This document shows, in pieces, positions 18,496-55,044 of a stretch of 64,000 nucleotides of DNA (the stretch's first letter is position 1; each line of letters begins with the position of its first letter). Origin of the DNA: Nemertoderma westbladi (lineage: Eukaryota; Animalia; Xenacoelomorpha); the NCBI GenBank assembly GCA_032718475.1, contig JAUCBJ010007494.1, positions 18,243 through 82,242 on the forward strand. Reading direction: 5' to 3'. Both the position numbers and the translations under genes were made by a program. The notes beneath the pieces were generated by a model. It saw only the letters and a program-made list of their open reading frames with translations, did no database searches and was not told where the DNA came from.

Positions 18496-18500
18496 CAATT

Positions 18501-19061: not shown

Positions 19062-19124
19062 CTGTTTACAGTATTTTTATATTATAGAAACTGTATAGAA
19101 TTAAATCCCATTGTCTGGGAGCGG

Positions 19125-26300: not shown

Positions 26301-28851
26301 GGAGCCACAGCGGGTGGTATATGGAGGAGCAGTTGGAAAGGGCTGAGTCTGGTGGAAGGGTGGAGCTGGAGCCACAGTGGGTGGTATAGAGAGGATTAGT
26401 TGGATTGGGCTGAGGCTGGTGGAAGGGTGGAGCTGAGCCACAGCGGGTGTTATAGGGAGGAACAGTTGGATTGGGCTGAGGCTGATGGAAAAGTGGAGCT
26501 GGAGCCACTGCGTGTGGCATAGGGAGGAGCAGTTGGATTGGGCTGAGGCTGGTGGAAGGGTGGAGCTGGATCCACAGCGGGTGGTATAGGGAGGAGCAGT
26601 TGGATAAAGCTGAGGTTGGTGGAAGGGTGGAGCTGGAGCTACAGCGGGTGGTATAGGGAGGATCAGTTGGATTGGGCAGAGGCTGGTGGAAAGGTGGAGC
26701 TGGCGCCACAGCGGGTGGTATAAGGAGGAGCAGTTGGATTGGGCTGAGGCTGGTGGAAGGGTGGAGCTGGATCCACAACGGGTGGTATTGGGAGGAACAG
26801 TTGGATAGGGCTGAGGCTGGTGGAAGGGTGGACCTGGATCCACAGCGGGTGGTATAGGGAGGAGCAGTTGGATAGGGCTGAGGCTGGTGGAAGGGTGGAG
26901 CTGAGCCACAGCGGGTGTTATAGGGAAGAGCAGTTGGATTGAGCTGCGGCTGGTGGAAGGGTGGAGCTGTAGCAACAGCGGGTGTTATAGGGAGGAGCAA
27001 TTGGATAGGGCTGAGGCTGGTGGAAGGGTGGAGCTGGAGCTACATCGGGTGGTATAGGGAGGATCAGTTGGATTGGGCTGAGGATGGTGGAAGGGTGGAG
27101 CTGGATCCACAGCGGGTGGTATAGGGAGGAGCAGTTGGATAGGGCTGAGGCTGGTGGAAGGGTGGAGCTGGAGCTACAGCGGGTGGTATAGGGAGGAGCA
27201 GTTGGATTGGGCTGAGGCTGGTGGAAGGGTGGAGCTGGAGCCCCAGCGGGTGGTATAGGGAGGAGCAGTTGGATTGGGCTGTGGCTGGTGGAAGGGTGGA
27301 GCTGGAGCCACAGAAGGTGTTATAGGTAGGAGCAGTTGGATTGAGCTAAAGCTGGTGGAGCTGGAGCCACAGCGGGTGTTATAGGGATGGGGCAGTTGGA
27401 TTGGGCTGAGGCTGGTGGAAGGGTGGAGCTTGAGCCACAGCGGGTGGTATAGGGAGGAGCAGTTGGATTGGGCTGAGGCTCGTGGGAGGGTGGAGCTGGA
27501 GCCACAGCGGGTGGTATAGAGAGGAGCAGTTGGATTGTGCAGAGGCTGGTGGAAGGGTGGAGCTGGAGCCACAGCGGGCGGTATAGGGAGGAGCAGTTGG
27601 ATTGGACTGAAGCTGGTGGAGCTGGAGCCACAGCGGGTGTTATTGGGCGGAGCAGTTGGATTGGGCTGAGGCTGGTGGAAGGGTGGAGCTGGAGCTACAG
27701 CGGGTGGTATAGGGAGGATCAGTTGGATTGGGCTGTGGCTGGTGGAATGGTGGAGCTGGATCCACAGCGGGTGGTATAGGGAGGAGCAGTTGGATAGGGC
27801 TGAGGCTGGTGGAAGGGTGGAGCTGGAGCTACAGCGGGTGGTATAGGAAGAATCAGTTGGATTGGGCTGAGGCTGGTGGAAGGGTAGAGCTGAGCCACAG
27901 CGGGTGTTATAGGGAGGAGCAGTTGGATAGGGCTGAGGCTGATGGAAGGGTGGAGCTGGAGCCACATCGGGTGTTATAGGGAGGAGCAGTTGGATTGGGC
28001 TGAGGCTGGTGGAAGGGTGGAGCTGGATCCACAGTGGGTGGTATAGGGAGGAGCAGTTGGATAGGGCTGAGTCTGGTGGAAGGGTGGAGCTGGAGCCACA
28101 GCGGGTGGTATAGAGAGGATCAGTTGGATTGGGCTGAGGCTGATGGAAGGGTGGAGCTGAGCCACAGCGGGTGTTATAGGGAGGAGCAGTTGGATTGGGC
28201 TGAGGCTGATGGAAAAGTGGAGCTGGAGCCACTGCGTGTGGCATAGGGAGGAGCAGTTGGATTGGGCTGAGTCTGGTGGAAGGGTGGAGCTGGAGCCACA
28301 GCGGGTGGTATAGGGAGGGGCAGTTGGATTGGGCTGGGGCTGGTGGAAGGGTGGAGCTGGAGTTACAGCGGGTGGTATAGGGAGGAGCAGTTGCATTGGG
28401 CTGAGGCTGGTGGAAGTGTGGAGCTGGAGCCACAGCGGGTGTTATAGGGAGGAGCAGTTGGATTGGGCTGAGGCTGGTGGAAGGGTGGAGCCACAGCGGG
28501 TGTTATTGGGAGGAGCAGTTGGATTGGGCTGAGGTTGGTGGAAGGGTGGAGCTGGAGCCACAGCGGGTGGTATAGGGAGGAGCAGTGGGATGGGGCTGAG
28601 GCTGGTGGAAGGGTGGAGCTGGAGCCACAGCGGGTGGTATAGGGAGGAGCTGTTGGATTGGGCTGAGGCTGTTGGAAGGGTGGAGCTGGAGCCACAGCGG
28701 GTGGTATAGAGAGGAGCAGTTGGATTGTGCAGAGGCTGGTGGAAGGGTGGAGCTGGAGCCACAGCGGGCGGTATAGGGAGGAGCAGTTGGATTGGGCTGA
28801 GGTTGGTGGAAGGGTGGAGCTGAGCCACAGCGGGTGGTATAGAGAGGAGCG
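20313..28851. repeat. 67-bp G-rich tandem satellite, about 125 units, with higher-order blocks
   Basis: Period 67 (e.g. GAGCCACAGC at 20531 and 20598); variant units recur at about 20430, 22170 and 23985. Confidence 0.98.
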
Positions 28852-30454
28852 GTTGCCCTGGTGACATTACGATCCAATCTGGGTACCAAGTGATGGGTGC
28901 CTCTCAAAAGGTAGGTGCTAAAATGCACAACGAGCAACAATGAGCAATAATGAGCACCAACGGGCAAAAACGAGCAAACACTTGGGAACTATGATAAATA
29001 CACATCATGACTATTGGATAATCAGTAAGTACAATACGTAAGTAGCTGTGTAACAGTAACTATAATAAAGTAACTTAACAGTACTCCACTATACTGTAGA
29101 TTGAAGATATACATTCATTACACAGTATAATGTATACCAGTAATATACCGAATATACACCATATCCTATGTAGAATATAGTGTCGTTATTGAACGCAACC
29201 CCCCCCCCCCCCACCCCCCTCCCCCCAGCCCAAATTTTTACACAATGCCATTTTTTTTGCAGAATGGCACCTTTTTTGACGAAAGGCAACGACATCGATA
29301 TATAACACATATATTATTTATTATTGCTCGTTAAATAATTAAATAATTAATAGAAAAAAATAATCTCCATTAGCGTTCATCCATAATGTAGTTTAACTTT
29401 AAAGAGGTGTGTTTTCATTAACCCACCAAAGACCGTTTGATTCAGGTTACACCAAGGACCGTTTGGGTCAAATTGACCCACAGTACAGTATATTATTGAT
29501 AAATATATCATTCAAAATGACCAAAAGTGAGGCATTATCAGTGTGAAAACTCATTTGCGACTTACGGCCCAGTTACTTATGCTATTTACATCCGATTTGG
29601 TTTCAATAACGAGCGTAGCGAGTGACACAACGAAACGAGAGTTTCTCATTTTGATCAGATATGTACTGTATGTAGTGCACCAGGTCCAGACCCATTACCG
29701 GCTACTGCATTATGAAAATCGCCCACGCCAGGTAAAATTTGAAAGAGAACCGCGCCAATCTGTACTGTTACGATACTGATGGTATCTGGTACAATCTGTA
29801 CTCGTTACTGTACAGTACTATTGTATGTACATAGAAATTTTGACAACTCCACCTGAACAAGCCTGTGTATAAGATGAGTTTCATAATATCATTCACGTAA
29901 GTACTCAGACTATTTACTTCAAACTGGGATTGATTAATGAGCGAAGCGAGTGACACAAAAACCGAGGACCTAAAGCTATGGGACCTAAACGCTTTGTGAC
30001 CTGATGACCTACTGCTACTGACCTAACTCAGTAACTGCCTAAAGTATACAGATGTGTGGACCTAACGCTACCAGGCTGCCAGGCTACATTGTCCACAAAA
30101 GAGATTCTCAAAAATGTTTCCATTTCAAGCACAACTTTTATATATTAGCCCAATTTATTAATTTATACTGTAGGCCTATAGGCTAATGACAGACACAATG
30201 ACCACTGGTTGCCAATAGGCGGTAGGCCTAGATAGCTAGATGATATATTTATGGCTATTATAGCCAGACAGCCAGATACGAGTCAGCCAGTCCCGGTAGC
30301 TTTAGGTCCTGGTGGCCTGGTACTGTAGCTTTTAGGTCCGTGGCCTACACTTTACACAGGTTACATAGACGAGTTGAAAGGAACCAAAACTTAAACGAGA
30401 GTTAGGAATAATTTAATTGAGAATTAGGACCGATTTGGACCTAACGCTACATTA

Positions 30455-34800: not shown

Positions 34801-35657
34801 TAATATAGTTAGTATTTAATTGCTCTAAATGTTGGGTCGAAATGCCGGCGTTTAATGATTTCCCTAGAGAACTCCAATCCAACCACTGATCAGATGTGTG
34901 CAGAGGATTTACAGAATTTAATAAACAATTTCGATTAATAATATTTCCTAACAGGTTACAGAGTTGAACGAGTTAGTTTACAGGTTACATGATACAGAGA
35001 TAGTGATTTCATCCATTACACTGTATCAGCTAATGGCTCCTCTGCTATTAAAGCATAATGATGGAGTAAAGATTCAACAAAGAGTTGATGGATCTGTTGA
35101 CTTCTATCGAAACTGGGATGAATATGTTGAAGGATTTGGTGATCCGAATACCAACTTTTGGTTGGGGTTGGAGGCGATCCACAATGTGAGTAAAGGCGGG
35201 GTGAAGTTGAGAGTCGATTTGTGGTTTACTGGATGGGGGATATTACCGTAAGAATTATTATATTAGAATATTACCGGAAGAAAGGAGGGCTTATCCCAAT
35301 GATAAAATCACTGGTGAGGGAAAGAATTACAACAACGAACACAAATACGCGGAATACAACAACTTCTCTGTCGGATCAGCTGCAACTAATTATCGCCTAC
35401 AGGTATCCGGTAACCATGGTACTGCTGGTGACTCATTGGAGCGGAACAACGGTCTCCCATTCTCTACCAAGGACCGCGATAATGACGGGAGGGACTCCAA
35501 CTGCGCCGTAGATGAAACTGGGTCGTGGTGGTACAACTACTGCGGGTTGAGTAACTTGAACGGAGAATACGGTGCGGGGGCTTATAAAGGACCTTATTGG
35601 TATCGTTTTACTGGAGTGAATCCGGCTTCTCGAGTTGAAATGAAGATTTGGATTTAG
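31823..35657 (+). CDS. Secreted fibrinogen-related (FReD; ficolin/angiopoietin-like) protein gene, 5 coding exons, frameshifted in the last exon (possible pseudogene)
   Basis: Phase-0 GT-AG exons: 31823-31879 (signal peptide MLPVSLKLFPLLSALFLLQ), 33634-33663, 34025-34138, 34261-34386 (duplicated coiled-coil exons) and 34955-35657 with IQQRVDGSVDFYRNWDEYVEGFG, FWLGLEAIH, FSTKDRDND, GSWWYNYCGLSNLNG. TATAAA at 31731; AATAAA near 35738. Confidence 0.85.
33033..33535. repeat. 68-bp tandem repeat, about 7 units, intronic
   Basis: GAAAATCCCGCCTCTGTAACCTGCTCCTTTCCCTCAATT.. recurs at 33033, 33101, 33169 and onward. Confidence 0.93.
33770..33963. repeat. Near-perfect palindrome (about 90-bp arms, 15-nt loop), intronic foldback/MITE-like insertion
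   Basis: ATAATTGAGTTGAGATAATGTCTGGGAG...CGACAGGGCTT paired with AAGCCCTGTCG...CTCAACTCAATTAT. Confidence 0.92.
34452..34610 (+). repeat. Short dispersed repeat, second copy at about 57075-57200
   Basis: TTTTTATTTATTTGTGTG.AATTAATTTCGCACTACCAAATCGCC...TGCGACATTATTTCTCAGTA is shared by both loci. Confidence 0.85.
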
Positions 35658-38656: not shown

Positions 38657-39880
38657 TGTAAAAGCTTTTGTGGGATAACTGATTCGTTTGCCTTGTTGGC
38701 CAGTTCCCCCCCAGTCGCTAAGAATACTCTCAAAGTGATCTATAGTTAAAATAGTGTAAGCTACCAGCTTATTGGCTGATTTGTGGGATGCAGGTATCTG
38801 GGCTCTGTTAATCGTCCAACTAGCCTAAGAGGGTTGCGTCATAGCCTGTTTTTGTATCTTCCAATAGAAATTTGAGTTATCCTGGATTTTAACCAATCCT
38901 GAGCTACTGAACTGAAAATTCCTATCTCACTGCTCATCCTCTGTGTTGAACGGGAGCTTTGGGGAATAAGTGTAGTTGGTATTCTCGTAGTCACGAGTTT
39001 TTTAAAGCCACGAAAGAACGGCTTATAGTGTTTTGTGCTTTTCTGCTTTTTAGTTTAACACTAGCAGGTTTAATTATAAGGACATATATCCTTTAACTGG
39101 CAAAACAAACTGCATATCATATCAAACTGCGGACTGCATACCTAACGCACGGCATACTACTGACTGCTGAAACATTGCAAACTCATAACAATCAGTGTTC
39201 AGTTGTTGTTTTATACTGCTATTTACTGTCGGTTATTCATTATATTTGTGGATGAATTATTATATTTGGAATAACGAGAAACAACCCCGAAACCCAATAT
39301 TCTTGATATACCGAAGGTAAGAGAGAAAGGTTACAGATAAACGATTGTGACTTATGTTAAAGTGGTTTGAAGTGAATTTAATGTTATTTGATAGACCCTA
39401 CATGAGTCAGCCTGTGTTCCTTTTATATGTGACTAAAATCAGTGAAGATCGGCAGATTAGTGTGCAGTATTGTGCAGCATTGTGTATGCGTGAGTCTGTT
39501 AAAGAAGCATTTCCTAAAGAATGCGCCATATATGTTAATTATAACTAAACCATATCGTTGTGAGTAGTTTAAGTCATAACTCTGTTTATATAGATAGAGC
39601 GCCACGTCCTAAAGGAACTGTTAATATTCCCGAAGGTAAATAATATTGTCAGAGATTATATAATACTGTCAGTCGAATAATACATTAGGCTTACATAGCA
39701 ATAAAATTAAACCGTCGAACCCAATCTCCCGGGAATATCCAGCGGGTGAATGGTCGCGCACGGATTGGTTTCGACTAGTGTAGTGAATCAAATATTTGTC
39801 GTAGGCAGAAAAGCGATTTAATATCTAGAAGACATCATAATTTGGTGGGTTAAACTGCCAAAGGTCTGAAAGCGCGAACA
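38657..39880 (+). repeat. 5' LTR of copy C
   Basis: TGT...ACA ends; CCAAT boxes in U3; donor-like AG/GTAAGA at 39317; AATAAA at 39700. Confidence 0.98.
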
Positions 39881-39892
39881 TTAAAGGATATA
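39881..39892 (+). promoter_or_regulatory. Non-canonical primer-binding position (TTAAAGGATATA), complementary to an LTR-internal 12-mer
   Basis: No TGG after the LTR; exact reverse complement of TATATCCTTTAA at 39085-39096; same pair in B (7976-7987 and 7189-7200). Confidence 0.6.
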
Positions 39893-40182
39893 GCTTCTTT
39901 ATTGCAGTAAGCAATAAAGTTGAAAGTACCGGTCAACCGGTAAACCTGAACGGTACATTGTAGGTCTGTAGGCCTAACTGTCATAACCGGTACCGGTACT
40001 GCTGTATAAGTACATTTAGTATTATTCGATTTTGATTGTTGTATACCTGTAGGTCTTAGTACTTAATCAGGGAACGGCCGCCCTGGTTTTTTATTGAGAT
40101 TTTACTTATTTCTGTCAAGTTTTATTTGTTTGTAGGCCAGTATTGAACAGAAGACGTGTAAGCCTGATCAGATTGTGCAGAC

Positions 40183-40745
40183 AATTTGTAGGCTGAGCTG
40201 TTGTCTGATTGCTGTTAGGTCTGAACGGATTGCAGTGTGTGTAGAGCAACTGTCCGGTTAAGTACGGTTAGGAAGTAGGGGCAGCGAATGCGGTAAGGTA
40301 AACCCCCAGCTAAAGAATAAGTCGTACTACTGGGTTAGAACGCATACTACCTAATCATTCCGGAGTCTGCATGTCCTGTAGTTTATTTAGGCTTGAGAGT
40401 AGTCTACCATCGTTTAGTCTGTACTTTGTTTGTGTAAGTCTGTACGGGTAGCGTATAATTTTATTTAGATAATTTGTAGGCTGGATAATTGTCTGGCTGT
40501 TATCGGGTCTGAACGGATTGTAGTGTGTGTAGAGCACCTGTCCGATTGAGTACGGTTAGGAAGTAGGGGCAGCGAACGCTGTAAGGTAAACCCCCAGCTA
40601 AAGAATAAGTCGTACTACTGGGTTAGAACGCATACTGCCTAATCATTTCGGAGTCTGCATATACCGTAGTTTGTTTAGGCTTGATAGTAGTCTGTCGGTA
40701 TTTGGTCTGCATTTTGTTTGAGTAGTTTGTACGCGTAGCGTAATA
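40183..40745 (+). repeat. 288-bp tandem duplication in the 2.2-kb 5' leader (also about 8240-8810 in B)
   Basis: CTAAAGAATAAGTCGTACTACTGGG occurs at 40310 and 40598. Confidence 0.9.
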
Positions 40746-42078
40746 TTTATTATTCAGAGTTTATGCGATTATTCGCAACCTTCACATTCCCCAACTTTGT
40801 TCCTACAGTAATTGTGTTTGTTATACATACCGCTATAGTTAAATTAACCCCGGTACTACACGGGCTGCTCGGCGTAGGTAAAGACTGGTGATTTTGTGCA
40901 TCGGTCACTCCAGCAGATGCCGTGGTTCTTTTAGCTGTTCAAGTATATTTAACTACTGATTATCTGTTATACAAGTACTCGTACCTAATTTAGGGTTTAG
41001 TGTACAGTAGGCCTACTTTCCGAAGTAATTAGTGTAGGCATTATATTTGTGTTGTAAAGTGGTTGATAGGCACCTTCGATTAGCTCTATTAACTTCTAGG
41101 TAGGAACACTCCGTGATACATAACGTAGAACCTATAGCGATACGGCCATAGGTCGTCAGGCGGTGGTATTTTCCTATCTGGACAACGCAGTGTATTTACT
41201 ACTACTTATTATTTTCAAATACTGTAGTACCCTGTCTGTTGTAATAACCAGATTTCTAACCCTTTGTTAGGCTGGTTTGTAGACTTCTTGTAAAATTACC
41301 CTAAAAATTCGTATTTTGTGTTTTTTGTAAATTTTTGCATTTATTTAGAGATTGTAATCTCACCCGAATTGTACGTAATTTGTAGTATTAAGTAACTTAG
41401 GTAAATTAGTATTATTTGTTTTAGTGTCCTGTACGTAACACTTCACTGAAAGCGTACCGCTTTGTGTAGTGATTACCCCAGAAATAATAACATTTGTTTC
41501 AAAGATTGACAAAACCCATTAAAACGGGTATATATATATTATAAATCAAATCTAACGATTTATAAATAGTAGGCCTACCATATAACAATTAGGTCTCAAT
41601 ATCAGTTGGATTACTGCTCAAATAACGGTAATAAAGTAAGTAAAGTAACAAAGTAACCCTAAAGTAACAGAAATTCAATTATTTGAAATAATTGATATAC
41701 CGGTATTTACGATAGGCCTATTATCTTTATTTCTATAAATCTAGGCTGAAATTATACCGGTACTTGTAATTAATTCTATTTCAGAATTATATATCCTACA
41801 AACTGTAAGCTGTATACCGGTATTCCGATAGGCCTATTATATATTTATATATATTTGTGCTAAAATTATACCGGTATTCTGTGATAAACCTAGTCTGTAA
41901 TAATACTTATATAGTTATATATACTATAAGTATACCGGTATTCTAATATATTATATATATATAACGCTACACTGAGTAGCAGTACCGGTAATTAATTACT
42001 AGGCTAGCAGTTAATACTGAGTTACTAGACTTACTCAGACTGTAATACAGCAGTAGACATTCAACGGTATACATAGTC

Positions 42079-45000
42079 ATGTCTGATACTAAGCAGAACC
42101 TGTCAGACAGTATATTAGATGTAACTATCTGCGACTCAGATAGAGACGTACAACAGTCTGGTCGTAAATTCAGTTCACCTCCCACTGTGAGGAAGGTCAT
42201 CCCTCCAGTAGTAATAACAGAACCTAGGCTAGTCCAACATCGTAGGTCTATCATAGGCACCCGAGCTCAGGTCAAGCGGGACCAACAAGCAGCGGAACAG
42301 CAACAACCCGCTAGTCAAGAACTTATTCCTCAGCGGCCCAGCAGCTCCAGTAGTGAGGATACTGTAGAGCTGACACCCGAGCGCGGAGCAGAGATGACGG
42401 ATGCGGTTTATACGGATCCCCTTCTCATCCTTCCTGCAGCCGTACTCACCAGGTTATTGATCGCGGTGGAAGAACACCAGATCGATTGGGCGAGAAGTCA
42501 ACGACCAACTAGAGATAGTTATGCGGGATACACGAGTGAAGAACTGAAGTCTATTGTCGAGTCGCAATGGAACTTCCCCGGACCCGGACTCCCGTTTGAT
42601 TTATCAGAAGCTGCCTGGGAAGACATACACCGGATGGGAGTAGCCAAGGAAACCATCGATCCAGCTGTATGGAAGAGGTCCGCAGCCGGATACGCACAAG
42701 GATTCTTCAGCTCTATGGAGCGAGTAGAAAAACAACTGTTTCAACAACCTCAAGGACCTCAAGAGCAGGGATCGCTGCTTTATCAAGTTAGAGAAAGAGT
42801 TCTGCGGATTAGGCTAATCTTATCCGCCTTTGAGGAGGCTTCTAAAAGAAGGCAAGACACGTCGTTGCAAGTTGCCGTAAAGACTTGGTTTCAACGGGTG
42901 AGTCGCCAGGTTCAAGGAGCAGCTCAGTGGAAAGCTCAGTTGGAGGAGCGCTCAACCCATGGAGAATCAACAGACGCTACTTTTTCCCAAGTGGAAAGTG
43001 AAGCGACGGCAGAGAAACCGCATAAGAGGGATGCCATTGACATCTATCTGTCAGACTATCAGCGTTTCGTAGGTGATGAAGAGTTGCGGAGAAGACTAGA
43101 TGGGCTTAGCCCTAATAGTGAAGGAGCCCAGCGTGTGTTGGATGCAATTGATGTGGATAGGTTAGCGGCGAACCAAGCTAAATTCGATGAACAACTCCGC
43201 ATCGCTAGAGACCAAGAAGAACAAGTAAAGAAAAAACGTATAGAAGATAGAAAGGCAGCGGCAGTGGCAGCAGCAGTGGCAGAGGCAGAAGCGGAAAGAA
43301 AGGCAGCAGCAGCAGTGGCAGAGGCAGAAGCGGAAAAAAAGGCAGCAGTGGCAGTGGCAGAGGCCGAAGCGGAAAGGAAAGCGGCAGCAGCAGTGGCAGC
43401 GGCAGAAGCCGAAAGAAAAACAGCAGAGGCAGTGGCAGAAGCAGAACGGATGGCATATGAAGAGGCAACCCAACTAGAGTTGGAAAATCTTCAAGAGAGG
43501 CAAGACAACTTCAATAAACAGTTAACAGCTAGTAATATGCAGATGATGAGTCGATCTACTCCCAAAAGACAGGGGTATACATCATCTGAGGAAGGCGATA
43601 CCACCGACACTGAAGGCGGAGGAAATCGACCTCGCCTAAGCAGACGTAAAAGAACATTCCACCGTCAGAAATTACCTGATTTGCCTCCAGCTGTTAGAAG
43701 GCAACTAAATAACAACAACTTAGGTAGTACAGAGCCCACAGACCAAATAATTACGATAGAAAGACTCCCTACTATAGTAGATGAGCCTGAAATAATTAGG
43801 CCTGTTCTTGAAATCACCCCTTCGGTGATAGACACACCTGTGCTCCCTGAAGCTACTTATAAATTCCCTCTACATAGCACTAAGCTACCTGTGCCCAGTA
43901 GAACTGCCCAGGAGACAGTTCAGGTCCTGGACCCCGAGCGAAATATTCCAACTTTGTCGCCCGTTGTCCCTCGTCTGCCCGCTACGACGTTGGCGGATCC
44001 CGTTTCGGCGGTTGATTGGGTAGACGAGAGACGGCGGGGGATGGATATTCTCCTCGGAGAGATGAAGGAGAATCGGAGACTCTCCTCCCAACAGGTCCGA
44101 GAGTTGGAAGGGACGGTCCAACATTTAAAGGGAACAGTGAGGGAAAGTAGGTTAGAGCTGCAAGAAGTGCAGCAAAGTATCGCGCTTGAACGCGATAAAT
44201 TAGTAAACACCCAAAAGGGTATACCACCACCCTCTGTAACAATGTGTCAACCTGTTAGGTCTGAAGTATCGCATGCGCAAGGTGTGGAGCCTACACGCAT
44301 TTATACTGCTAGCGAAGTAGAAACTCCTATAGTGAACCCTATTAAGGGTAATTATAGACCTGTTGATAATGATATTCCATATAGAACTGACCATAATCCT
44401 AGAAATTTATATACCGATAACTCGATATTAAATAGCACGATGGCCCAAGAAAGTTTTACGCGTCAAATGGCTAGAACCGAAGCCCGGCAAGCGGTAAAGG
44501 TTGGAGAGATCGTCAAGTTCAATGGAGATGAGATGAAATGGTTACCTTTTAATGAATATTACAAAGATAGCATACAGAACTCTGTACTATCTAATGGAGA
44601 AAAACTTAGATACCTCATAGAGTGCTTGGAAGGATCTCCCAAGTTAATGGCGTTAAAGTTTATTGGACATCCAGACGGATTAAGACAGGTTTGGGATACA
44701 ATAAACATCAGGTATGGTAATAGGAATAATATCGCTGGGTACTTGTATGCAAAGTTAGTAGCGCCCCGAAAGTTTATTAGTAGCGAAATTATCGAGTTTT
44801 CCGATGAGATCCAGGAGATCTGCAGACAATTAGATTGGCTAGGTAAGTCTCATGAGTATCAGAACACTATGGTTATTAGAGCAGTGGCTTCTACTTTACC
44901 TAAAGGTGGAGTAGGTACACGCTGGGATAAGAAAGTGTTATATATGATGGAACAACAACGGCGAGACCCTACCATGGCTGATCTCATGTCATTCCTAGAT

Positions 45001-48000
45001 GGAGAAGTGAAATTACAGCTCCTGAAACTGTCTAGGGAGAAAACACCGGAAAACAAGGTAAGTGAAAAACCCGTCTCTAGGAGAAAAATAACACCAGTAT
45101 GTTATACCGATGACGGCGAAAGCCAGACTTCTCAAGGAGAAGATAGCGGGAAGGACACGGATAGATCTTATTACGTGAATAAAATGCCTAAAGATCAGGT
45201 AAGTAAATTCAAGTCTCGAACAAATGACAGGAGAGAACAAGTAAGAAAAACTCCTCCCATGTCTCCCAAGAGAATTCAGGTGAGAAAGCCCGAAGAAAAG
45301 GCAAGTGTACACAATGTGACTCAGAATAAGGTAAGTAACATTAAACCAAAATGTGCGCTGTGTGACGGGACCCACTATTTGAATAGGTGTGATGAATTTC
45401 TAAAGAAATCATTAACGGAGAGACGCGAAGTTATGTGGGATAAGCGGTTATGTTATAATTGCCTCAGACAAGGACACCAACGGCGTACCTGTTTCTCGGA
45501 CATAAGATGTGCAAAGTGTGGTGCGAAACATCATATCTTGTTGCACGCTGAATTCGATCGAAATAGTCCGAATCAGGTAAGTGATTCCGAGCTACATGTC
45601 CAATTCAGTGATGTGAACGACACTGATCAATCTGAGATGGAAGGATTCTACACAGACGAGTTCTCCGACGAAAACGAATCCTGTTACATGATAAATACCG
45701 CAGTGTATCGAGCGCTCACCTATGAAAAGGATACAGACAACGACTTCAACCTAACTACTTCTGAGCGACAACAATCTTGGAAAGAGCCATCTTCCAATGT
45801 AGGGATCCGAGAGTTTCCTGTGGTGCAAGTGAGGGTTCATGGACCTAAGAGGAGTTATGTAGTGAACGCCCTCCTTGACTCCGGTAGTACAGGAACATTC
45901 ATCGACAAAGAGCTAGCCGAAGATATATTTGCTGGACAACTCAAGTTCCAAACTAAGCTCAACATGTCTGGCATAATGCAAGTTTGGAAATCTACAATCA
46001 CAGCGGATTATTATGTAGGAGCATTGTCCACCCCCCAGGACGAACTAGGAGAACATAGCATAAGGTCAGTGAAAATGGTGGCTATAAAGAACTTCGCTAC
46101 TACTCAAGCAGACCTTTATAATTGGGACGAGGATGAGAGCATCCAACATCTTAACATACCTCGATTCCAGACTGATTATCCTGGAGTGCAAATACTCATC
46201 GGCCAAAACGCGCATGAGGCGCTGGAGACATTAGAGAAACGGCCTGCTCAACCGCAGCCCCTACAGACCTATGCGGTAAGAACTAGAGTAGGTTGGTACT
46301 TTACTGGCCCTTCCCGTAGAACACTCAGAGAAAGACTACCGCCAGAGAGCGTATGCCAGGTGAGTGAATGGGAAGATGATACCAGTGAGGGAGACAACTC
46401 AACTGAGGGAATTCCATATTCCTCAGATAATGACGACGTTCACCAGCTTTTTGATGAGGAGAATACCATCGATCTCCTTAAGGAAAACGACGCTTGGCAA
46501 AACCAAGTGAACTTATGTCAACTTCTCTATCCATCTGAACGAGAAGCTTATAACGACGAGTTACATGACGTCATTGAGCGTCATAATGCCAAGATTCGGG
46601 ATGAACATGCTGTACGATTCTTTACGCAAGAGGCAGTAGAGCCCAATTCCTATGATAAGGCCTTATCAGTGGAAGAGGAAAGGGCCAAGCAGATCCAAGA
46701 GACTACCACACGTTTCATCAAAGATCAAGGTAGGTATGAAGTCGGTTTACCTTTTCGTAAGAAAGAGCCGAAGTTCATCAATAACAGACCTTTGGCGGAA
46801 AAAAGAATCGCGCAACTCCATCGACGCCTTACGGCTAATTCTTCAGCGAAAACAATGTATCAAACACAGCTGGAAAAGTTTATTAATAAGGGATACGCGG
46901 AGAGGGTACCGGAAGAAACACCTGTGACTGAAAGAACGTATTATTTAACTCACCATTACGTTCCTAAACCCGGTAAACCCAATGAAGTGAGAGTAGTGTT
47001 TGATGGCTCCGCTCTTTACATGGGTCAATCCCTTAACTCTGAATTGTTACCCGGACCCAACTTACTTCAATCTTTGTTGGGAATTCTTTTAAGATTGAGA
47101 CAATATGCGATTGCTTTCGCCTCAGATATAGAAGGCATGTTCTTGCAAGTCAAAGTGTTGGATAGGGATCGAGATAGCCTACGATTTCTATGGTGGCCCG
47201 AAGGAGACCTCAACCAGAAACCGGTGGAGTATTGGATGACCATCCAGGCCTTTGGGATAATCTCAAGCCCTTCCAATGCCTGTTCTGTAGTGCGTACTAC
47301 TGCAGAGGACAACCGAGAGGCATTCTCTAAGGAAGTGATCGACAACATCAAGAAAGACATATACATGGACGACAATCTGAAGTCCCTTCCATCAGTTGAA
47401 GAAGCCATTGAGGTCGCTAAGGGAACGGTAGAGTGCTTAAAAAGAGGTGGTTTTCGATTAACAAAATTCACCAGCAACTCCCGTGAGTTTCTGGAGTCGA
47501 TTCCTGCGGAAGATCGCGGAGCGAAAGATCTAGATTTGATCAAAGATGATCTGCCAGAAACCAAGACACTCGGCTTGAAATGGGACACAGAGAGAGATAT
47601 CCTGTTTTTCCAACTAAAACAGCGGGACAATCCTGTTCGAACCAAACGGATTTGCTTAAGTATACTGAGCACCTATTTCGATCCATTGGGATTTATTAGC
47701 CCAGTTATATTGATTGCTCGAAGTTTGGTACAACAAATGTGGCTTGAAAACCACTCATGGGATGATCCACTTAAGGGGGAGTTACTGAAGCAGTGGATGA
47801 AATGGGAAGATTCTCTACCAGCGATCGAGGAGTTTATAATTTCCCGTTCATATTTTGGTCATGTTTTCCCTACGTATTCCTATCAACTCCATGTGTTTGG
47901 AGACGCCAGCGATATGGGAATCGGTATAGTAGCCTACCTAAGAGTGGAAACTCCGGATGGAATCAAACTCGCCTTGGTCACTTCTAAAGCATTAATCAAC

Positions 48001-50247
48001 AACAAGTTGAAAGTTCCTCGAGCGGAGTTAAAAGCGGCTCTATACGCTACAGCCATCGGCCGGAATGTAACCGAACAGATTGACTATACATTAGAGAAAA
48101 CTGTATATTGGACCGACGCTTTACTCGTGTTAGAGTATATAACCAATGAAGTCTGTCAGTTCAGCGTCTTCGTTACCAACAGAGTAGCCATCATACTTAG
48201 TCGCACGACGATGGACCAATGGAGACATTGCCCCGGAACGATTAATCCAGCGGACATCGCGTCCCGAGGAGCGACTCCAAAGGAATTGGTAAATACTCCC
48301 GAATGGTTAGGCGGACCCGACTTTCTCTACCGAGAAGAAGAAGAATGGCCACCCCATCTCACAACAGCAGAGATCAGACAGGCCAAGGGAGCGGAGAAAG
48401 TTAAGCCCAAAACTCGAGCGAGTAAATCAAAGTTGTTCAAACCTGCGGTTGATCTATCTGTATTATTTACTTCCGGAGATGATGCTTTGGATCAGAAACC
48501 CACCGCCACGACGAAAGAAGTCTTGGAAATCCGTGACAAGGATTGGAAATCTGGAATACCAGATATCTCGCAAGGACTCTCACCTCTCTTGCAGAGAGCA
48601 ATACGTCACTACAGTTCCTGGAATCGGCTCTGTAAAGCCGTCACCTATTTGAAACGATGTTTTCATCATCGTTACTCCGGAACAAAGACCAATAGTGATG
48701 ATACTCCATCTACATCTGCACGAGTCCATGTTGTTAAAGATCTTCCCCAATATAAGGTATCCCACAGGTTTCTAAAGGAGAAGATCAGCTACCAGGAGCA
48801 TGATGAAACCAACAAACAGATGCTGAGACTCCTACAATGCTATGAGGATTCCGATAAGTATTTCCTGTTGTTAAGAAATCCACAGATGCGCTTAAGGGAT
48901 CGCTTCTCTAGTACCATGATAGATGGGTTAATACGTGTTGGAGGTCGGCTCACCAACGCCCCGTTATCCTTTGACACTAAGTTTCCCATACTCATTAGAA
49001 ATCTTGATATACAAATCAAGATGATTGTAGATGTTCATAGCAAACTGTACCATGCCGGTAGAGAGCGGGTTCTGAGCGAAATCCGAACTCGCTACTATTT
49101 TTATAAACCCCGTAGGGCTCTGAACCAAGTTCTTAGGAACTGCATACCCTGTAGGAAAGCATTCAGTAGGCCTTTAACGCAGCGAGAGGCAGAATTACCT
49201 AGGGAAAGAGTAAGCTTCTATGAACCACCCTTTACTAATACCGGTGTGGATTTATTTGGCCCTATTGAAGTATATCGTGCCCGGACTATAGTCAAGAGAT
49301 GGTGTGTCATCTTCGTTTGTATGACTTGTAGAGCTATCCATCTCGATATGGTAAACGATCTATCCACCAACAGCTTCGTGTTGAGTTTGCGACGACAGAT
49401 AGCTCGCTTCGGAACCAGTAACACGATGAGATCGGATAAGGGAACGAACTTCATTGGCGCCAATAACGAAATTCAAGCTTACGTAAAGGACTGGAATAAA
49501 AGACAGGTGGACGATCAGCTAAGAATAACAGCGTCTAGCTGGACCTTCAACGCCGCCGACGCCCCTTGGTGGGGAGGAAGTTGGGAGAGATTGATTAGGA
49601 GCGTGAAGACTGCGTTCCACTTTATTGTGCCTTGTCGCGCTTATCTCACCGACGAACTATTGCGGACGTTAATGGAGGAAATCGCCGCCTATCTCAACGA
49701 AAGACCGCTTATGCCAGTCTCTTCAAATCCTGATTCCCTGGAAGCGCTAACACCCGCGCACTTTCTACTGAAGAAACCCGTAGCCATGCTCCCGCAATCG
49801 GAGATCACAGACGGAGACGAGTACTGCCGTCGAACCTGGCAACTTATGCAGTTGCTATCCCGTCGTTTCGCTGACCATTTTGAGAAACATTACCTGCCCA
49901 CTCTACAACTTCGAACTAAGTGGTTTGCGCAGCAAGAAAACGTCAGCGCTGGAGACATGGTGCTTATTGTGGACCCCGATCTCCCACGTAAGCGATGGCA
50001 AACAGGACGTATCATCGAGACTTATATCTCGAGCGATGGTTTGGTGCGATCAGTAGAGCTCGTCGTCATGCGGCGGAACTTTAAGAAACCAGGGATAGTC
50101 TTTGAGACTCAACAGCTTAATCGCCCAGTGGGACGTTTATGTTTACTGGAAAGAGACAGAGAGCTCTCCGGAAACTATGGAAGGCAAGAAACTCTTCCCA
50201 CGACCACTTCCCTGATCCAACCGACATCTAGGGACTCCCCAACTTAA
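42079..50247 (+). CDS. BEL/Pao Gag-Pol polyprotein (2722 aa): Gag, 3 Zn knuckles, aspartic protease, RT, RNase H, integrase
   Basis: ALLDSGST; YLTHHYVPKPGKPNEVRVVFDGS, DIEGMFLQV, YMDD; LHVFGDAS, PRAELKAA, YWTDA, NPADIASRG; HSKLYH..CIPC, GVDLFGP, SDKGTNF, PWWGGSWERL; BEL domain order in a single ORF. Confidence 0.98.
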   Translation: MSDTKQNLSDSILDVTICDSDRDVQQSGRKFSSPPTVRKVIPPVVITEPRLVQHRRSIIGTRAQVKRDQQAAEQQQPASQELIPQRPSSSSSEDTVELTPERGAEMTDAVYTDPLLILPAAVLTRLLIAVEEHQIDWARSQRPTRDSYAGYTSEELKSIVESQWNFPGPGLPFDLSEAAWEDIHRMGVAKETIDPAVWKRSAAGYAQGFFSSMERVEKQLFQQPQGPQEQGSLLYQVRERVLRIRLILSAFEEASKRRQDTSLQVAVKTWFQRVSRQVQGAAQWKAQLEERSTHGESTDATFSQVESEATAEKPHKRDAIDIYLSDYQRFVGDEELRRRLDGLSPNSEGAQRVLDAIDVDRLAANQAKFDEQLRIARDQEEQVKKKRIEDRKAAAVAAAVAEAEAERKAAAAVAEAEAEKKAAVAVAEAEAERKAAAAVAAAEAERKTAEAVAEAERMAYEEATQLELENLQERQDNFNKQLTASNMQMMSRSTPKRQGYTSSEEGDTTDTEGGGNRPRLSRRKRTFHRQKLPDLPPAVRRQLNNNNLGSTEPTDQIITIERLPTIVDEPEIIRPVLEITPSVIDTPVLPEATYKFPLHSTKLPVPSRTAQETVQVLDPERNIPTLSPVVPRLPATTLADPVSAVDWVDERRRGMDILLGEMKENRRLSSQQVRELEGTVQHLKGTVRESRLELQEVQQSIALERDKLVNTQKGIPPPSVTMCQPVRSEVSHAQGVEPTRIYTASEVETPIVNPIKGNYRPVDNDIPYRTDHNPRNLYTDNSILNSTMAQESFTRQMARTEARQAVKVGEIVKFNGDEMKWLPFNEYYKDSIQNSVLSNGEKLRYLIECLEGSPKLMALKFIGHPDGLRQVWDTINIRYGNRNNIAGYLYAKLVAPRKFISSEIIEFSDEIQEICRQLDWLGKSHEYQNTMVIRAVASTLPKGGVGTRWDKKVLYMMEQQRRDPTMADLMSFLDGEVKLQLLKLSREKTPENKVSEKPVSRRKITPVCYTDDGESQTSQGEDSGKDTDRSYYVNKMPKDQVSKFKSRTNDRREQVRKTPPMSPKRIQVRKPEEKASVHNVTQNKVSNIKPKCALCDGTHYLNRCDEFLKKSLTERREVMWDKRLCYNCLRQGHQRRTCFSDIRCAKCGAKHHILLHAEFDRNSPNQVSDSELHVQFSDVNDTDQSEMEGFYTDEFSDENESCYMINTAVYRALTYEKDTDNDFNLTTSERQQSWKEPSSNVGIREFPVVQVRVHGPKRSYVVNALLDSGSTGTFIDKELAEDIFAGQLKFQTKLNMSGIMQVWKSTITADYYVGALSTPQDELGEHSIRSVKMVAIKNFATTQADLYNWDEDESIQHLNIPRFQTDYPGVQILIGQNAHEALETLEKRPAQPQPLQTYAVRTRVGWYFTGPSRRTLRERLPPESVCQVSEWEDDTSEGDNSTEGIPYSSDNDDVHQLFDEENTIDLLKENDAWQNQVNLCQLLYPSEREAYNDELHDVIERHNAKIRDEHAVRFFTQEAVEPNSYDKALSVEEERAKQIQETTTRFIKDQGRYEVGLPFRKKEPKFINNRPLAEKRIAQLHRRLTANSSAKTMYQTQLEKFINKGYAERVPEETPVTERTYYLTHHYVPKPGKPNEVRVVFDGSALYMGQSLNSELLPGPNLLQSLLGILLRLRQYAIAFASDIEGMFLQVKVLDRDRDSLRFLWWPEGDLNQKPVEYWMTIQAFGIISSPSNACSVVRTTAEDNREAFSKEVIDNIKKDIYMDDNLKSLPSVEEAIEVAKGTVECLKRGGFRLTKFTSNSREFLESIPAEDRGAKDLDLIKDDLPETKTLGLKWDTERDILFFQLKQRDNPVRTKRICLSILSTYFDPLGFISPVILIARSLVQQMWLENHSWDDPLKGELLKQWMKWEDSLPAIEEFIISRSYFGHVFPTYSYQLHVFGDASDMGIGIVAYLRVETPDGIKLALVTSKALINNKLKVPRAELKAALYATAIGRNVTEQIDYTLEKTVYWTDALLVLEYITNEVCQFSVFVTNRVAIILSRTTMDQWRHCPGTINPADIASRGATPKELVNTPEWLGGPDFLYREEEEWPPHLTTAEIRQAKGAEKVKPKTRASKSKLFKPAVDLSVLFTSGDDALDQKPTATTKEVLEIRDKDWKSGIPDISQGLSPLLQRAIRHYSSWNRLCKAVTYLKRCFHHRYSGTKTNSDDTPSTSARVHVVKDLPQYKVSHRFLKEKISYQEHDETNKQMLRLLQCYEDSDKYFLLLRNPQMRLRDRFSSTMIDGLIRVGGRLTNAPLSFDTKFPILIRNLDIQIKMIVDVHSKLYHAGRERVLSEIRTRYYFYKPRRALNQVLRNCIPCRKAFSRPLTQREAELPRERVSFYEPPFTNTGVDLFGPIEVYRARTIVKRWCVIFVCMTCRAIHLDMVNDLSTNSFVLSLRRQIARFGTSNTMRSDKGTNFIGANNEIQAYVKDWNKRQVDDQLRITASSWTFNAADAPWWGGSWERLIRSVKTAFHFIVPCRAYLTDELLRTLMEEIAAYLNERPLMPVSSNPDSLEALTPAHFLLKKPVAMLPQSEITDGDEYCRRTWQLMQLLSRRFADHFEKHYLPTLQLRTKWFAQQENVSAGDMVLIVDPDLPRKRWQTGRIIETYISSDGLVRSVELVVMRRNFKKPGIVFETQQLNRPVGRLCLLERDRELSGNYGRQETLPTTTSLIQPTSRDSPT

Positions 50248-51897
50248 TATCGTTCGGAGTGGGCGTGTGACTCTATTATTTTATATTCTTTTATTATTTT
50301 ATATTTATGTATGTATTACTATGTAATTTTATTATAATCGTTTTATTTAATTTAGTAGAATATTATTTTGGCGATTATTTTGTAGAATAGCGCAATATAT
50401 TCGTGTTTATTACGTACGTACATACTTACTTATATTATATTTAGTGCGACGGCGAAGAAATAATTATTTTTTCTCTTTCCTTACTGTCCGTATTATATTA
50501 TAAATACGTAACTACAGTAAGATGAAATGTCTGTACTTATTAAAGTACAATAAAGCCACTACTATATTTAAGTATTATTGGTAGGCAGAGTATTAGGAAT
50601 GCAAAGTTCAGATCCTCGTGTCTCGGCTAAACCAAGCTCTGGGTAGACCTTGGAAACGACTTGCCTCTTCACACTGACATTGCTTCGTGCGATATTGCTC
50701 TCATACCGTATATTAAATAATACATATAGTAGCGTGATGTCCCTTTAACAGTAGCGTATAATGCAAAATAAATCTGATAAACCCTTTGACCATCTGTAAT
50801 TCTAGTCGATTAAGATATCGCGGCACCCACCGATATACTTGAAAGACAAATTCTAGAATCAGTGGTTAACGTCCCCAGACAAGTTCTGGAATAAATCGGT
50901 GCCCATCTCAAATATTAATTATTTAATATTTGCAAATCAAATAAGTCAAAATCTGTAAAATTCAGATCCTTCAACAATTCTAGTCAATTAAGATATCGTA
51001 GCATTTACCGATATTCTTAAAGAGACAATTTTCTTAGAATTAAGGATCTTGTGTCCCTAGACATGTTCTAGAATCAAAATATGTCTATCTAATTATCAAA
51101 TAATAAAATTTCAGGGAATAAATTTAAATTCATGTTTTTTAATGAATTTAATAAATTGCCATTTTACGCAATTTATAACATTCCCAAAATTCTATTAATT
51201 AATAGATCAAGGGAGCGGAGATTTATATTATTATGCGTATGCGTGTACGAAAGTCTCCCCAACATAGTCAATAGCCGATAAAATTCATAAAGTCATATAT
51301 AAACAGGACATTGACTATTAAAGAATTCCTATTAAATAACATCCCAGATCTGTATGCATTGGAATTACTCTAATTCTACCGCTAGCTTTGCATAATGTCA
51401 CCATAGCAACAACCACGCTAGAATTAGGATTGAGTTAAACTAACAATAGAAAGCTTGTCCCATTGAATAACATAGGGAATAAATAGCGCACTACTAGTAT
51501 CCAAGGATACATAATAATACAGTGACATTCTGGAAGGCATTGACTAACGGACAAATGGCCCGAATGTGTGTAGTTGTGACCAGTTGTGTGGTATTTGTGA
51601 GTTTATAGGTGAATGTTACTGCTAAAGTGTGTTTACCGTAGCTAGTCACAATCGTAAAATAACCTAACTCCCCAAGGAATACCTGAAGTACATCTAAGCC
51701 TTTGGGACGGACAGTGGAGTGACTTGTGTCGGTTATCGTTGTAGTTGTACGGCTACGTCGTTGGCGAAAGTACAGCTACAGCGGTACATCGGCGCTGAGA
51801 ATCTCTTACTGTCCGGGGGCAAGGGGAACTAGGCGTCGACGCCCGCTCGCCTAACGATATAAACTCATTATCATATTGGTGAACTCGTATAGCAGAT

Positions 51898-54800
51898 ATG
51901 ACTGAATTAATAGAAGATGATCTTGGTATCAGGGAGAGATATACTCTACCTCTACAAGCGTTTGTCGATAGCTTAATACGCGGCGACGCTGATCCAACTC
52001 CTACGGAGGACGATGGTCGTTATATCGAACCGCCAATGTCCCAGGAGCAACTTACGCGTGAATTGGATTATAGAAAGTTCACTGCTCGCTACACTCATCG
52101 TAATGGTACGTATATGGACTTCTTGACCACTGGTCATCCTATTGATTTACACGACACCGACGATGTAGACACCGAAAGGGAAATGGTTTTATTTAAATAT
52201 CATGCCCAGCGGAGTCGAAACGATAAATCGAGAATAGAACACGAGAACTCTATTCGAAACAAACTCGAAAGAGAAGACGTTGAAGAACCTGATAAACGTA
52301 ACGGTTTCAACGATTATCTAGAATTCTTACGAGAGACCTATCTCAATGTTGCTAGTCAACAAAACCTCGAAACTCGATATCCCCAAGGTATACATCCAGA
52401 TCCTATAATGGAACTCAAACGGCTCTATTTTACGATGATGTATCTTACCGCCGATCGACCGCTACCTGTCGTTCCAGATAGCTTCGAACAGATGGAGGAA
52501 TATTGTAAAACTGGAGAGCGATCACCCGCGTTTCCCCTTCAAGACGTGCGTCTTTGGTATTACTGTGACGAATGCCCTAGACCTAACCAGCAAATCGAAA
52601 GGCATAAACACCCTCTGAGACGTTGCGCTAAGCACAGTTTTACGCGATATACTTATGGGAGTTTCGAGCTTAACCTTTTCGACGTATCGCCTACGGTCGC
52701 GCGCCTTAAGCGATCATTGAATAAACCCATGATCAGAGTTCCGGAATACTCGGTCAGACCTCCCCATTCACAAGTGATACCTCAAACTCTAGATCCTAAT
52801 AGTATTACGGATCCTCCCGAACTGTACTCACTGTTCAAAGATCTAGTGTTACCTGAACAGTTGATTGGTGGCACTCCGGTAGTGGGTTCGCTGGATATTC
52901 GCCAACCTTACCTTGCTGGACTAGGACGCGGTCATTTAATATCACCGTTTAATCCCTACAACCGTCCTGGCCTTCCTCCGATCCAACCTGTTACAGAAGT
53001 CGAAGAGAGCGTGATACGAAATGCATTGGACGCTATTCGGCAGAAAATCGGGAAAGGAACTTACGATTGCTTGGAGAAACGTAAATTGCAGCAACAAGTC
53101 CAAGCGGTGAAAGAACTAGCTTTACCCCAGTTTGATAGAGAAATACAAAATCTAGAGGAGGACATCGAACGTGGACGAACCTACTCTTTACAGGAATTCC
53201 TGGACGAGCGCTTGCAACAACAAGCGGAGGAAAATCAGATCGAGGAAAGACATATAGAACTGACTGAGAGGGAAGAAGCAGCTTTAGCTCAACCAGAGGC
53301 TCAAATTCTCGTGACGGATCTCTATTCCAAAACGATCCTCCACCCCTCAATGGTTCCTCAGTTTAAAGACAAGCTCTTTGCTACGGTACAACCTCAACCG
53401 GTTAATACTGATCTCAGATCTCACGAGCTCGTTGCTGACGCTCCCATGCTACAACGCCCACCCGTAGAGGCTGCCCGTGTCGATGGCATACTTGTTGAGC
53501 CTCCGGACAATAGAGCAGATCTTGTCCGTCGCATGGTGCACGATGTTAACATACGCGCTCACCCGTTAATACTTGGAACTAAACTCGCCAAGTTAGACGA
53601 ACACAATAAGTTCATACGTTTTGAATGTTTCCGGCGCTTTCTGACTCCGTTCCGTAAAGTCGATAGTCAGTTCAAAGATCGCGCGCTGACCAAGCTCAGT
53701 CTTAGAGACTCAGCTGCGGAGAAACTGAGTAGCGCTGGATTTGCTGTGTTTCAAGACGTTTGTATACAGAACTCACATTCATCTGTTATACAAAGACCCC
53801 GAATACCTACAGGTTATTCTGTCGTGGAAATACAGACAGTGGGTCCACTTACGGAAACCGACGCACCAACTTCGTCTATGCAGCTGGAGGATGAACCAGT
53901 ATGCTTGGAATCCGAAGCGATTCAACCTACGGCTTCTCGGAGCAGTGACAATGATTATGTCATAGAGTGGTATCAAGGTCCACAGCGTCTCACAGCGTAC
54001 GATTATCGACACGCCAACTACGTTTCCCGAAAACGTTGTCGATTATGCGCATCGAGAGACCACTTCACTCCTCTAGACTCGAGCGTACCTTGTTCCTATT
54101 TCCTCGAACAACCGATGATGGAAATATATTGTGCTTATTGCCGGCTTAATAACTCTCATATATTTGCCGTCTGCCAACAATTTATGACTCAATGTCACTA
54201 CTGCCAACTTAAAGGACACGAAAGTTACAATTGTCCCTTTAATCGCGATTTAGAGAGCGTAGACGAGATGATCACCCTGCGATACATCCGAGCTTGGGAA
54301 GCGAACGCAGATTTACATTGCGAATCCAGACATCGCTATTACCCTGGACGAGCTTACGAGGGAGTTTACGCGTTCCATCCTTATCTATTCGCGTCGATTG
54401 AACAGAAAACACGCGTACCAAGTTACGAGTTAATGAAGCGTGTTGGTGAGTGTATTTCCACCAAGTTTGTCAGGAAATACCTGAGAAACGTTAATCCTAA
54501 TGATATAACCACATATCACCTGATCAATTTTATCCGTCAGGACCCTGAGTATGGCGACATTTTCGTGAACTCGCATCCTGAACTCCAGGAAGTATCTCGG
54601 CGCCCATATGAATATCGAACCCGAGAACGCGAGCTGGAGAGAACCATTAAACCGAGAAAGTTCCTCACCACTCACGGTCCACCCACCGCTAGTGTCCAGA
54701 CGACCCGTCAAGGACCCGTGGGAGCTGCTGTCCTGAGACGCGCTCTAAAGGCCGTTAGACCTCGCTCCACTGAGGTTGATATTAATCAACCAGGTACTTC

Positions 54801-54966
54801 GACCGGCGGGTATACCGATCGTAATCCTACCCCTTCTGATGCAATCGTATTGCACCCTTCGCCTAGGAGCTACAGCCCTCCTCATAAAGTGGCTCGCCCC
54901 AAAGAGAAAAGGACTCTTGCTAGCCTCAAGAAACTGCGTAAACGCCGTCCGCGCAAGAAAGACTAA
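51898..54966 (+). CDS. ORF2 (1022 aa), unknown soluble protein with three CCHC knuckles and a C-terminal NLS-like tail
   Basis: Long open frame inside the LTRs; CRLCASRDH..C, CAYCRLNNSHIFAVC, CHYCQLKGHESYNC; KKLRKRRPRKKD; no signal peptide or transmembrane segment visible. Confidence 0.9.
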   Translation: MTELIEDDLGIRERYTLPLQAFVDSLIRGDADPTPTEDDGRYIEPPMSQEQLTRELDYRKFTARYTHRNGTYMDFLTTGHPIDLHDTDDVDTEREMVLFKYHAQRSRNDKSRIEHENSIRNKLEREDVEEPDKRNGFNDYLEFLRETYLNVASQQNLETRYPQGIHPDPIMELKRLYFTMMYLTADRPLPVVPDSFEQMEEYCKTGERSPAFPLQDVRLWYYCDECPRPNQQIERHKHPLRRCAKHSFTRYTYGSFELNLFDVSPTVARLKRSLNKPMIRVPEYSVRPPHSQVIPQTLDPNSITDPPELYSLFKDLVLPEQLIGGTPVVGSLDIRQPYLAGLGRGHLISPFNPYNRPGLPPIQPVTEVEESVIRNALDAIRQKIGKGTYDCLEKRKLQQQVQAVKELALPQFDREIQNLEEDIERGRTYSLQEFLDERLQQQAEENQIEERHIELTEREEAALAQPEAQILVTDLYSKTILHPSMVPQFKDKLFATVQPQPVNTDLRSHELVADAPMLQRPPVEAARVDGILVEPPDNRADLVRRMVHDVNIRAHPLILGTKLAKLDEHNKFIRFECFRRFLTPFRKVDSQFKDRALTKLSLRDSAAEKLSSAGFAVFQDVCIQNSHSSVIQRPRIPTGYSVVEIQTVGPLTETDAPTSSMQLEDEPVCLESEAIQPTASRSSDNDYVIEWYQGPQRLTAYDYRHANYVSRKRCRLCASRDHFTPLDSSVPCSYFLEQPMMEIYCAYCRLNNSHIFAVCQQFMTQCHYCQLKGHESYNCPFNRDLESVDEMITLRYIRAWEANADLHCESRHRYYPGRAYEGVYAFHPYLFASIEQKTRVPSYELMKRVGECISTKFVRKYLRNVNPNDITTYHLINFIRQDPEYGDIFVNSHPELQEVSRRPYEYRTRERELERTIKPRKFLTTHGPPTASVQTTRQGPVGAAVLRRALKAVRPRSTEVDINQPGTSTGGYTDRNPTPSDAIVLHPSPRSYSPPHKVARPKEKRTLASLKKLRKRRPRKKD

Positions 54967-55036
54967 CTGTTTAGAGTATTTTTATATTTTAGAAACTGTG
55001 ATTTTATATATTTTATAGACTTAAATCCCATTTTCT

Positions 55037-55044
55037 GGGAGCGG
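55037..55044 (+). promoter_or_regulatory. Short polypurine tract GGGAGCGG
   Basis: Immediately precedes the 3' LTR in all three copies, within a TCCCA-n5-TGGGA hairpin. Confidence 0.75.

Follow-up and report, generated by a model that had tools for sequence, protein, structure and literature searches.

In the window (the whole 64-kb stretch of DNA that was analyzed), a single LTR family is represented by three elements, C, B, and A (Table 1), B being inserted in A, within A's copy of the second open frame. The LTR ends of C and B were set by the identical LTR pairs together with the 5-bp target duplications. Because DUF1759, Peptidase_A17 (1.3e-35, Pfam), Integrase_H2C2, and DUF5641 all lie in its 2733-codon Gag-Pol frame, C is, judged from its predicted proteins, a BEL/Pao element (Belpaoviridae). 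The Pao-type domains of the Gag-PR-RT-RH-IN polyprotein are accompanied by LTRs, a purine tract, and a target duplication; PF05380 is present in 112/112 homologues, the best of which shares 44% identity with C across RT-RNase H. No chromodomain family was matched in C (Pfam), and its polyprotein is not of the type found in the Ty3/gypsy chromoviruses (Tf1/sushi). C keeps the acidic motifs of the RNase H, its putative catalytic residues, and the second open frame has no Pfam or PDB match.

Table 1. Features of elements C, B, and A (positions are those of the window)
Feature	Position	Strand	Remarks
Element C	38657-56268	+	17.6 kb; intact, young; TSD TTCTG
5' LTR of C	38657-39880	+	1224 bp, TG...CA; identical to C 3' LTR
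Candidate initiator-type promoter, C	38987-39023	+	YAGT (A at -96), CGGCT 30 nt later; promoter role putative
Candidate self-primer 12-mer, C	39085-39096	+	LTR nt 429-440
AATAAA, likely poly(A) signal	39700-39705	+	~600 nt downstream of 12-mer; AATAAG in A
Predicted 8-bp hairpin in U5	39841-39862	+	Just upstream of site; predicted in B too
Predicted primer-binding site, C	39881-39892	+	Exact 12-mer complement, offset 0 from LTR end
Perfect 9-bp hairpin after site	39897-39919 (C); 7992-8014 (B)	+	Same sequence in both
Gag-Pol open frame of C	42046-50247	+	2733 codons; domains given in the text
RT YMDD of C	47362	+	Within Gag-Pol frame
RNase H acidic motifs of C	47890-48255	+	Within Gag-Pol frame; putative catalytic residues
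Second open frame of C	51883-54966	+	1027 codons, sense strand, CCHC-like cluster
3' LTR of C	55045-56268	+	Purine tract GGGAGCGG on its 5' side; 12-mer again at 55473
Element B	6747-18495	+	TSD CAATT; LTRs differ at 1/1229 bases; RT deleted
5' LTR of B	6747-7975	+	12-mer inside, at 7189-7200
Predicted primer-binding site, B	7976-7987	+	Same sequence as C site
3' LTR of A	19125-20312	+	A keeps 3' LTR and part of interior; 5' end lost
A-type motif TATAACTGTTAT	19560-19571	+	Ungapped alignment to C/B 12-mer, four differences

C shares with the Belpaoviridae (genus Semotivirus) the set and order of domains, TG...CA LTRs (here of 1.2 kb), a purine tract, and a 5-bp duplication. The ICTV description of the family (PMC8742986) has its members primed by host tRNA at an 18-nt primer-binding site (PBS) for tRNA-Arg or tRNA-Gly, with genomes of 4.2-10 kb; C, in contrast, lacks an 18-nt tRNA PBS, is 17.6 kb long, and has a second, non-Pfam frame.

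The other two elements share one deletion junction relative to C (approximately C 46437 to 48214) by which the RT and most of the RNase H have gone, and each has a second deletion inside the integrase (window 2716-20312). A and B are only ~85% alike, B is young, and the gag-protease part has been kept, as in a long-lived non-autonomous lineage. A 288-bp tandem duplication lies in the 2.2-kb leader of both C (40178-40758) and B (8236-8815), and a 67-bp G-rich satellite with 128 copies is found on both sides of A (20313-28855; 2408-2711). Fibrinogen-domain-like coding pieces, recognized by eye in two frames at 34952-35657, are consistent with an animal host.

The post-LTR site and its complement within the LTR

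In both C and B, the first bases after the 5' LTR (which ends in CA) are TTAAAGGATATA, at offset 0, and these are the exact complement of an LTR stretch, TATATCCTTTAA, that occurs in the window only at 7189, 17709, 39085, and 55473 (i.e., once per B or C LTR); the reverse complement of this 12-mer is found in the window only at 7976 and 39881. The initial annotation had reported both this complementarity and the lack of TGG after the two intact 5' LTRs, and both observations hold: TGG is missing from the 200 nt that follow the C LTR, and B has its first one at +168 after the LTR. The LTR motif, which had been placed at about nt 430-455, is present, and its exact place is now corrected to nt 429-440 in C and nt 443-454 in B. 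The 12-mer was recovered anywhere in the C LTR in 6/20000 dinucleotide shuffles, and internal positions reaching a 12-nt complement to their own LTR number 4/15139 in C (the post-LTR site among them) and 2/9266 in B. The cognate 12-nt duplex of C has a predicted energy of -11.6 kcal/mol. Neither the window nor the 109 related loci described below contain a tRNA, and since the window has no Rfam RNA either, no element-encoded tRNA primer is seen.

Two further points of the annotation carry less weight than it gave them. The 12-mer is indeed identical in LTRs that have otherwise diverged (149/346 identical positions in U3, and 52/104 over the next 104 nt), but it terminates a 50-nt block in which B and C agree at 46/50 positions, so that its identity is weak evidence when taken alone. 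Seven joints in contigs of four runs leave C at 39095-39099 and rejoin it at 39174-39222, which implies that the conserved block ends with the 12-mer; 40/165 variant positions are listed for the family-variant contigs, too few to call the 12-mer invariant. Likewise, the perfect 9-bp hairpin that follows the site is present in C and B, but, as the window lists 14 perfect hairpins of at least 9 bp, it is not special by itself. Its 5' arm (39898-39905) is also an 8-base complement of LTR GCAATAAA (39698-39705), and one may speculate that the arm masks the 5' poly(A) signal.

Matched changes in the A subfamily

The annotation had suggested looking for compensatory change between the LTR 12-mer and the post-LTR bases, and the A-type LTR, whose motif differs from that of C and B at four positions, offers such a comparison. 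The A LTR end was compared with contigs of four runs (X1, X3, X4, X5). In X1, a 54-nt contig (record 6) agrees at every position with the final 45 nt of the A LTR and then reads ATAACAGTT. Its depth is 416.7, against about 60-68 for flank-like contigs, or ~7 times the depth of a single insertion (67.8 for one contig listed in X3, and an inferred value of ~60 for X1). The new bases, 9 in number, come from a single contig in a single run (X1, which may be the sample of the window itself) and are connected to the motif 740 nt upstream through the LTR-end type and not physically. They pair 9/9 with A's motif and 5/9 with C's, and the four differences between the A and C sites lie opposite the four differences between the LTR motifs. 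The A-type end thus complements A's own motif and does not keep TTAAAGGATATA without an LTR complement; it was expected to read TAACAGTT..., which is correct as to the complement, but the site starts one base earlier, as ATAACAGTT. In the whole window, the complement of the A 9-mer occurs once, at the place aligned with the 12-mer. The predicted energy of the cognate A duplex (9 nt) is -7.9 kcal/mol, and those of the crossed A/C pairs are -0.6 and +0.9 kcal/mol. No A-type loose end is listed in X3, and X4 and X5 have no contigs at the A LTR end.

As the A-type bases are seen in only one contig, the contig could in principle be the flank of an insertion that matches by chance, as could the C site. 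The probability of the A-type match is, however, 8e-6 for a random flank and 1e-4 for four random substitutions, and together with the shuffling result for C and the ~7-fold contig depth these values make coincidence exceedingly improbable. It is by evidence of this type, four matched changes, that a working duplex can be told from a chance one, and two subfamilies with different primer pairs in one genome provide a direct test case: under self-priming, A-type copies would read ATAACAGTTAT(A) after the 5' LTR.

A PBS complementary to an LTR-internal stretch, the mark of self-primed elements, is found in C, B, and the A-type end. Because four site changes match four LTR changes between subfamilies, and because there is no TGG site, the C/B/A family likely primes reverse transcription with its own RNA (at a probability of roughly 0.8, as estimated from the sequences), and the annotation's central proposal is in this way supported by the offset-0 complement, the missing TGG, and the compensatory changes of the A type. 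The right end of an LTR is fixed by the start point of minus-strand synthesis, and the primer must therefore pair at the post-LTR site. This bears on whether the duplex, while real, might have a structural role (packaging, dimerization, or translation control) with some other primer being used. Covariation by itself shows pairing or copying, not priming, and in the fungal GalEa elements a hairpin-type site with an unknown role replaces the PBS (PMC5445492); in C and B, however, the site begins at the first post-LTR base, precisely where minus-strand synthesis must start, and no other primer site is present there, which leaves a purely structural duplex very unlikely.

A proposed priming route and the transcription start

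By analogy with Tf1, self-priming would begin with the 5' part of the transcript folding back, bringing the 12-mer onto the site ~785 nt downstream. A cut just 3' of the 12-mer, made by the element's own RNase H, would follow, and the RT would extend the freed 3' end into a minus strong-stop DNA of ~780 nt that could jump via the R region of ~630 nt. The RT-less B and A elements would be primed likewise, in trans, by a C-type enzyme. Since plus-strand synthesis would copy the primer into the site, a change in the motif would reach the site in one round, and covariation between the two would arise easily.

The length of the primer depends on where the RNA starts. The annotation had noted an Inr-like (C/A)AGTG about 100 nt upstream of the motif; TCAGT is indeed found at -98/-99 in B and A, but C has GTAGT instead, at equal spacing. 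In C, B, and A, respectively, YAGT lies at -96, -96, and -97 and CGGCT at -66, -64, and -67, despite the diverged U3, and the pair may be an Inr and a DPE. Given self-priming, a capped fragment of ~110 nt starting near -97 has, in our assessment, slightly better than even odds, and a Tf1-like, cap-proximal primer of 11-13 nt is possible, at well short of even odds. The annotation's idea of a primer longer than in Tf1 thus gains from the YAGT/CGGCT spacing and loses from the predicted folds: the duplex probability is near 1 if the RNA starts at most 1 nt from the 12-mer, 0.4-0.98 with a start at -17, and only 0.00-0.18 in the predicted ensemble once the RNA begins 31 or 100 nt upstream, which speaks against the longer primer, even if folds of ~900 nt are weak evidence. 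Run X4, which is guessed to be RNA, covers U3 and is thus uninformative on the transcription start.

At 25-35 nt upstream of the 12-mer, a TATA box is lacking. TATAAA is found at -11 in B only, with TATAAG in C, and would place the start ~20 nt past the start of the motif, that is, downstream of the 5' copy. In that case the element would have to use the 12-mer copy in the 3' LTR, which is the same sequence, or a second RNA molecule. We regard this variant as very unlikely: A has no TATA-like box at that place, the motif in its native upstream context is predicted to be occupied by local or R pairing, and a cut in the 3' LTR would be expected to remove the R region that the jump requires.

Two other sources of the primer were considered and rejected. 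A splice-built primer is not indicated in C, where the 12-mer is contiguous and no junction matches better, and a primer generated at the poly(A) site is at odds with the position of AATAAA ~600 nt downstream of the 12-mer and with A's site, which begins with A. A TTTAG resembling a 3' splice site lies 32-34 nt upstream of the 12-mer in all three LTRs, and no splice donor common to the A, B, and C LTRs that would pair with it was found. Strong donor-like AAG|GTAAGA sequences in R (39317, 39637) are kept in A, B, and C, and a spliced message carrying the second frame might use them.

Known self-primed elements and the relatives of C

In the available text of the Tf1 and sushi reports (PMC7175516, PMC4600332, bioRxiv 2022.12.06.519325), these elements are without a tRNA site and have an 11-12 nt PBS after the 5' LTR that complements an LTR-internal stretch. 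The group includes Tf1/Tf2 of Schizosaccharomyces pombe, Tj1, and Tosmo1-3, all like C in these two respects as far as the same texts go. In Tf1 itself, the RNA's first 11 bases anneal to the PBS, and RNase H cleaves between bases 11 and 12 (according to the accessible part of PMC7175516), the primer duplex being one part of a three-duplex structure (bioRxiv 2022.12.06.519325, likewise in part). C differs from the Tf1/sushi elements, which are Ty3/gypsy chromoviruses, in being BEL/Pao, in having no chromodomain family match, and in its loop of ~785 nt; it also has no TATA box at a distance of 25-35 nt ahead of the motif, and of the three duplexes of the Tf1 "pretzel" the central one is predicted, whereas the two flanking ones are not conserved between B and C. 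Self-priming is described for Tf1/sushi and has further been predicted for Tcn1 and plant TAR elements (portions of PMC6317226, PMC4600332, and PMC6934838). As with C, the prediction for the TAR elements (Houba, Osr-1; Ty1/copia) and Tcn1 comes from complementarity alone; they belong to other superfamilies and another kingdom, and the available portion of PMC6317226 does not mention splice-built primers.

The mechanism that we propose is a known one, here in a superfamily for which priming by tRNA has been described, and the main new evidence is the four matched changes. The annotation knew of no report of self-priming in BEL/Pao; we likewise found none in print in a search made mostly by title and abstract, with most subscription journals, Repbase Reports, and GyDB outside its scope, and the main text of two BEL/Pao surveys (PMC3118150, PMC554778) does not include the PBS or tRNA. 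If the reading is right, BEL/Pao would become the third superfamily in which initiation does without a tRNA; this would explain the many BEL/Pao copies without a detectable PBS, and annotation tools that require a PBS would miss such copies.

We gathered 109 loci with BEL/Pao proteins, 20 of which have a repeat that seems to mark the LTR end. After L077 (its contig ends inside the LTR) and L064 (a tandem repeat) were dropped, 18 relatives were typed and the other 89 were not; for 8/18, the purine tract or the pol end served for a guess at where the LTR begins. With the rule that a match be exact, at offsets 0-3, and either contiguous or GT-AG spliced, 11/18 relatives have a self-complement, 11-15 nt long and spliced in 9 cases and contiguous in 2 (two of the 11, L076 and L094, are close kin), 3/18 have a TGG site, and 4/18 have neither. 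Pairings between non-cognate sites and LTRs reach 11 nt in 3/340 cases. In L086, L101, L025, L088, L095, L014, L024, L076, and L094, the site pairs over 11-15 nt across a GT-AG intron of the element's own LTR, and five of these nine have a GTAAGT donor. The first-exon part of the spliced primers is 3-9 nt, which would seem too short for a whole first exon and so favors a start near -97 over one at the motif. A promoter at a conserved position upstream of the relatives' primers was not found (TATA at -31 in 1/11, with mixed Inr positions).

One more source of the primer has to be weighed here, namely the 5' half of a tRNA cleaved at its anticodon loop; the LTR match would then be a by-product. 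The last seven bases of both primers (CC-UUU-AA and CU-GUU-AU) look like anticodon loops, if the loop pattern that we assume is correct. Copia and Helenus elements are described as primed from the anticodon loop, tRNA-Asn-GTT being one of the tRNAs used (PMC10886601, in the part available), and the half-tRNA primed FunCo1, fungal Helenus, Osser, and Bianca elements resemble C in having a PBS without TGG directly after the LTR. Their site, however, matches a tRNA anticodon arm, whereas the C and A sites match and covary with the LTR, and the FunCo1 tRNA-Lys internal-region site ATTAAGAGTCT (PMC5445492) shares TTAA and 5/10 bases with the C site. A tRNA half would also leave the four matched changes inside the LTR without a reason, and in 9 relatives the complement spans the GT-AG junction of the LTR; we consider it a highly unlikely primer.

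In a FastTree phylogeny of 44 RT-RNase H rows (C, 25 selected proteins, and the 18 relatives that were typed, without the untyped loci and without reference elements of the named superfamilies Sinbad, Dan, Suzu, Pao, Flow, Tas, and BEL), C has a long branch and attaches at an open fork in a clade of 30 rows with a support of 99. This clade holds all self-complementary loci but also two TGG loci, and so does not order the gains and losses. Taking these observations together with those on C, we tentatively suggest, at a little under even odds, that a large BEL/Pao branch of aquatic animals may have lost tRNA priming independently of Tf1 and may follow a mechanism that Tf1 does not have, in which a long capped primer is cut from the interior of the element's own transcript, usually assembled by splicing out an LTR intron and ready-made in C; with the primer copied into the site, the pair could change freely, giving each subfamily a private primer outside host control by tRNA fragments.

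BEL/Pao relatives were looked for in viral contigs, where there were none. Thirty-six of the loci (L074-L109) come from GTDB prokaryote genomes that encode BEL/Pao proteins, several with both LTRs, and we read these as host-animal contigs binned into MAGs, plus one Wolbachia record.
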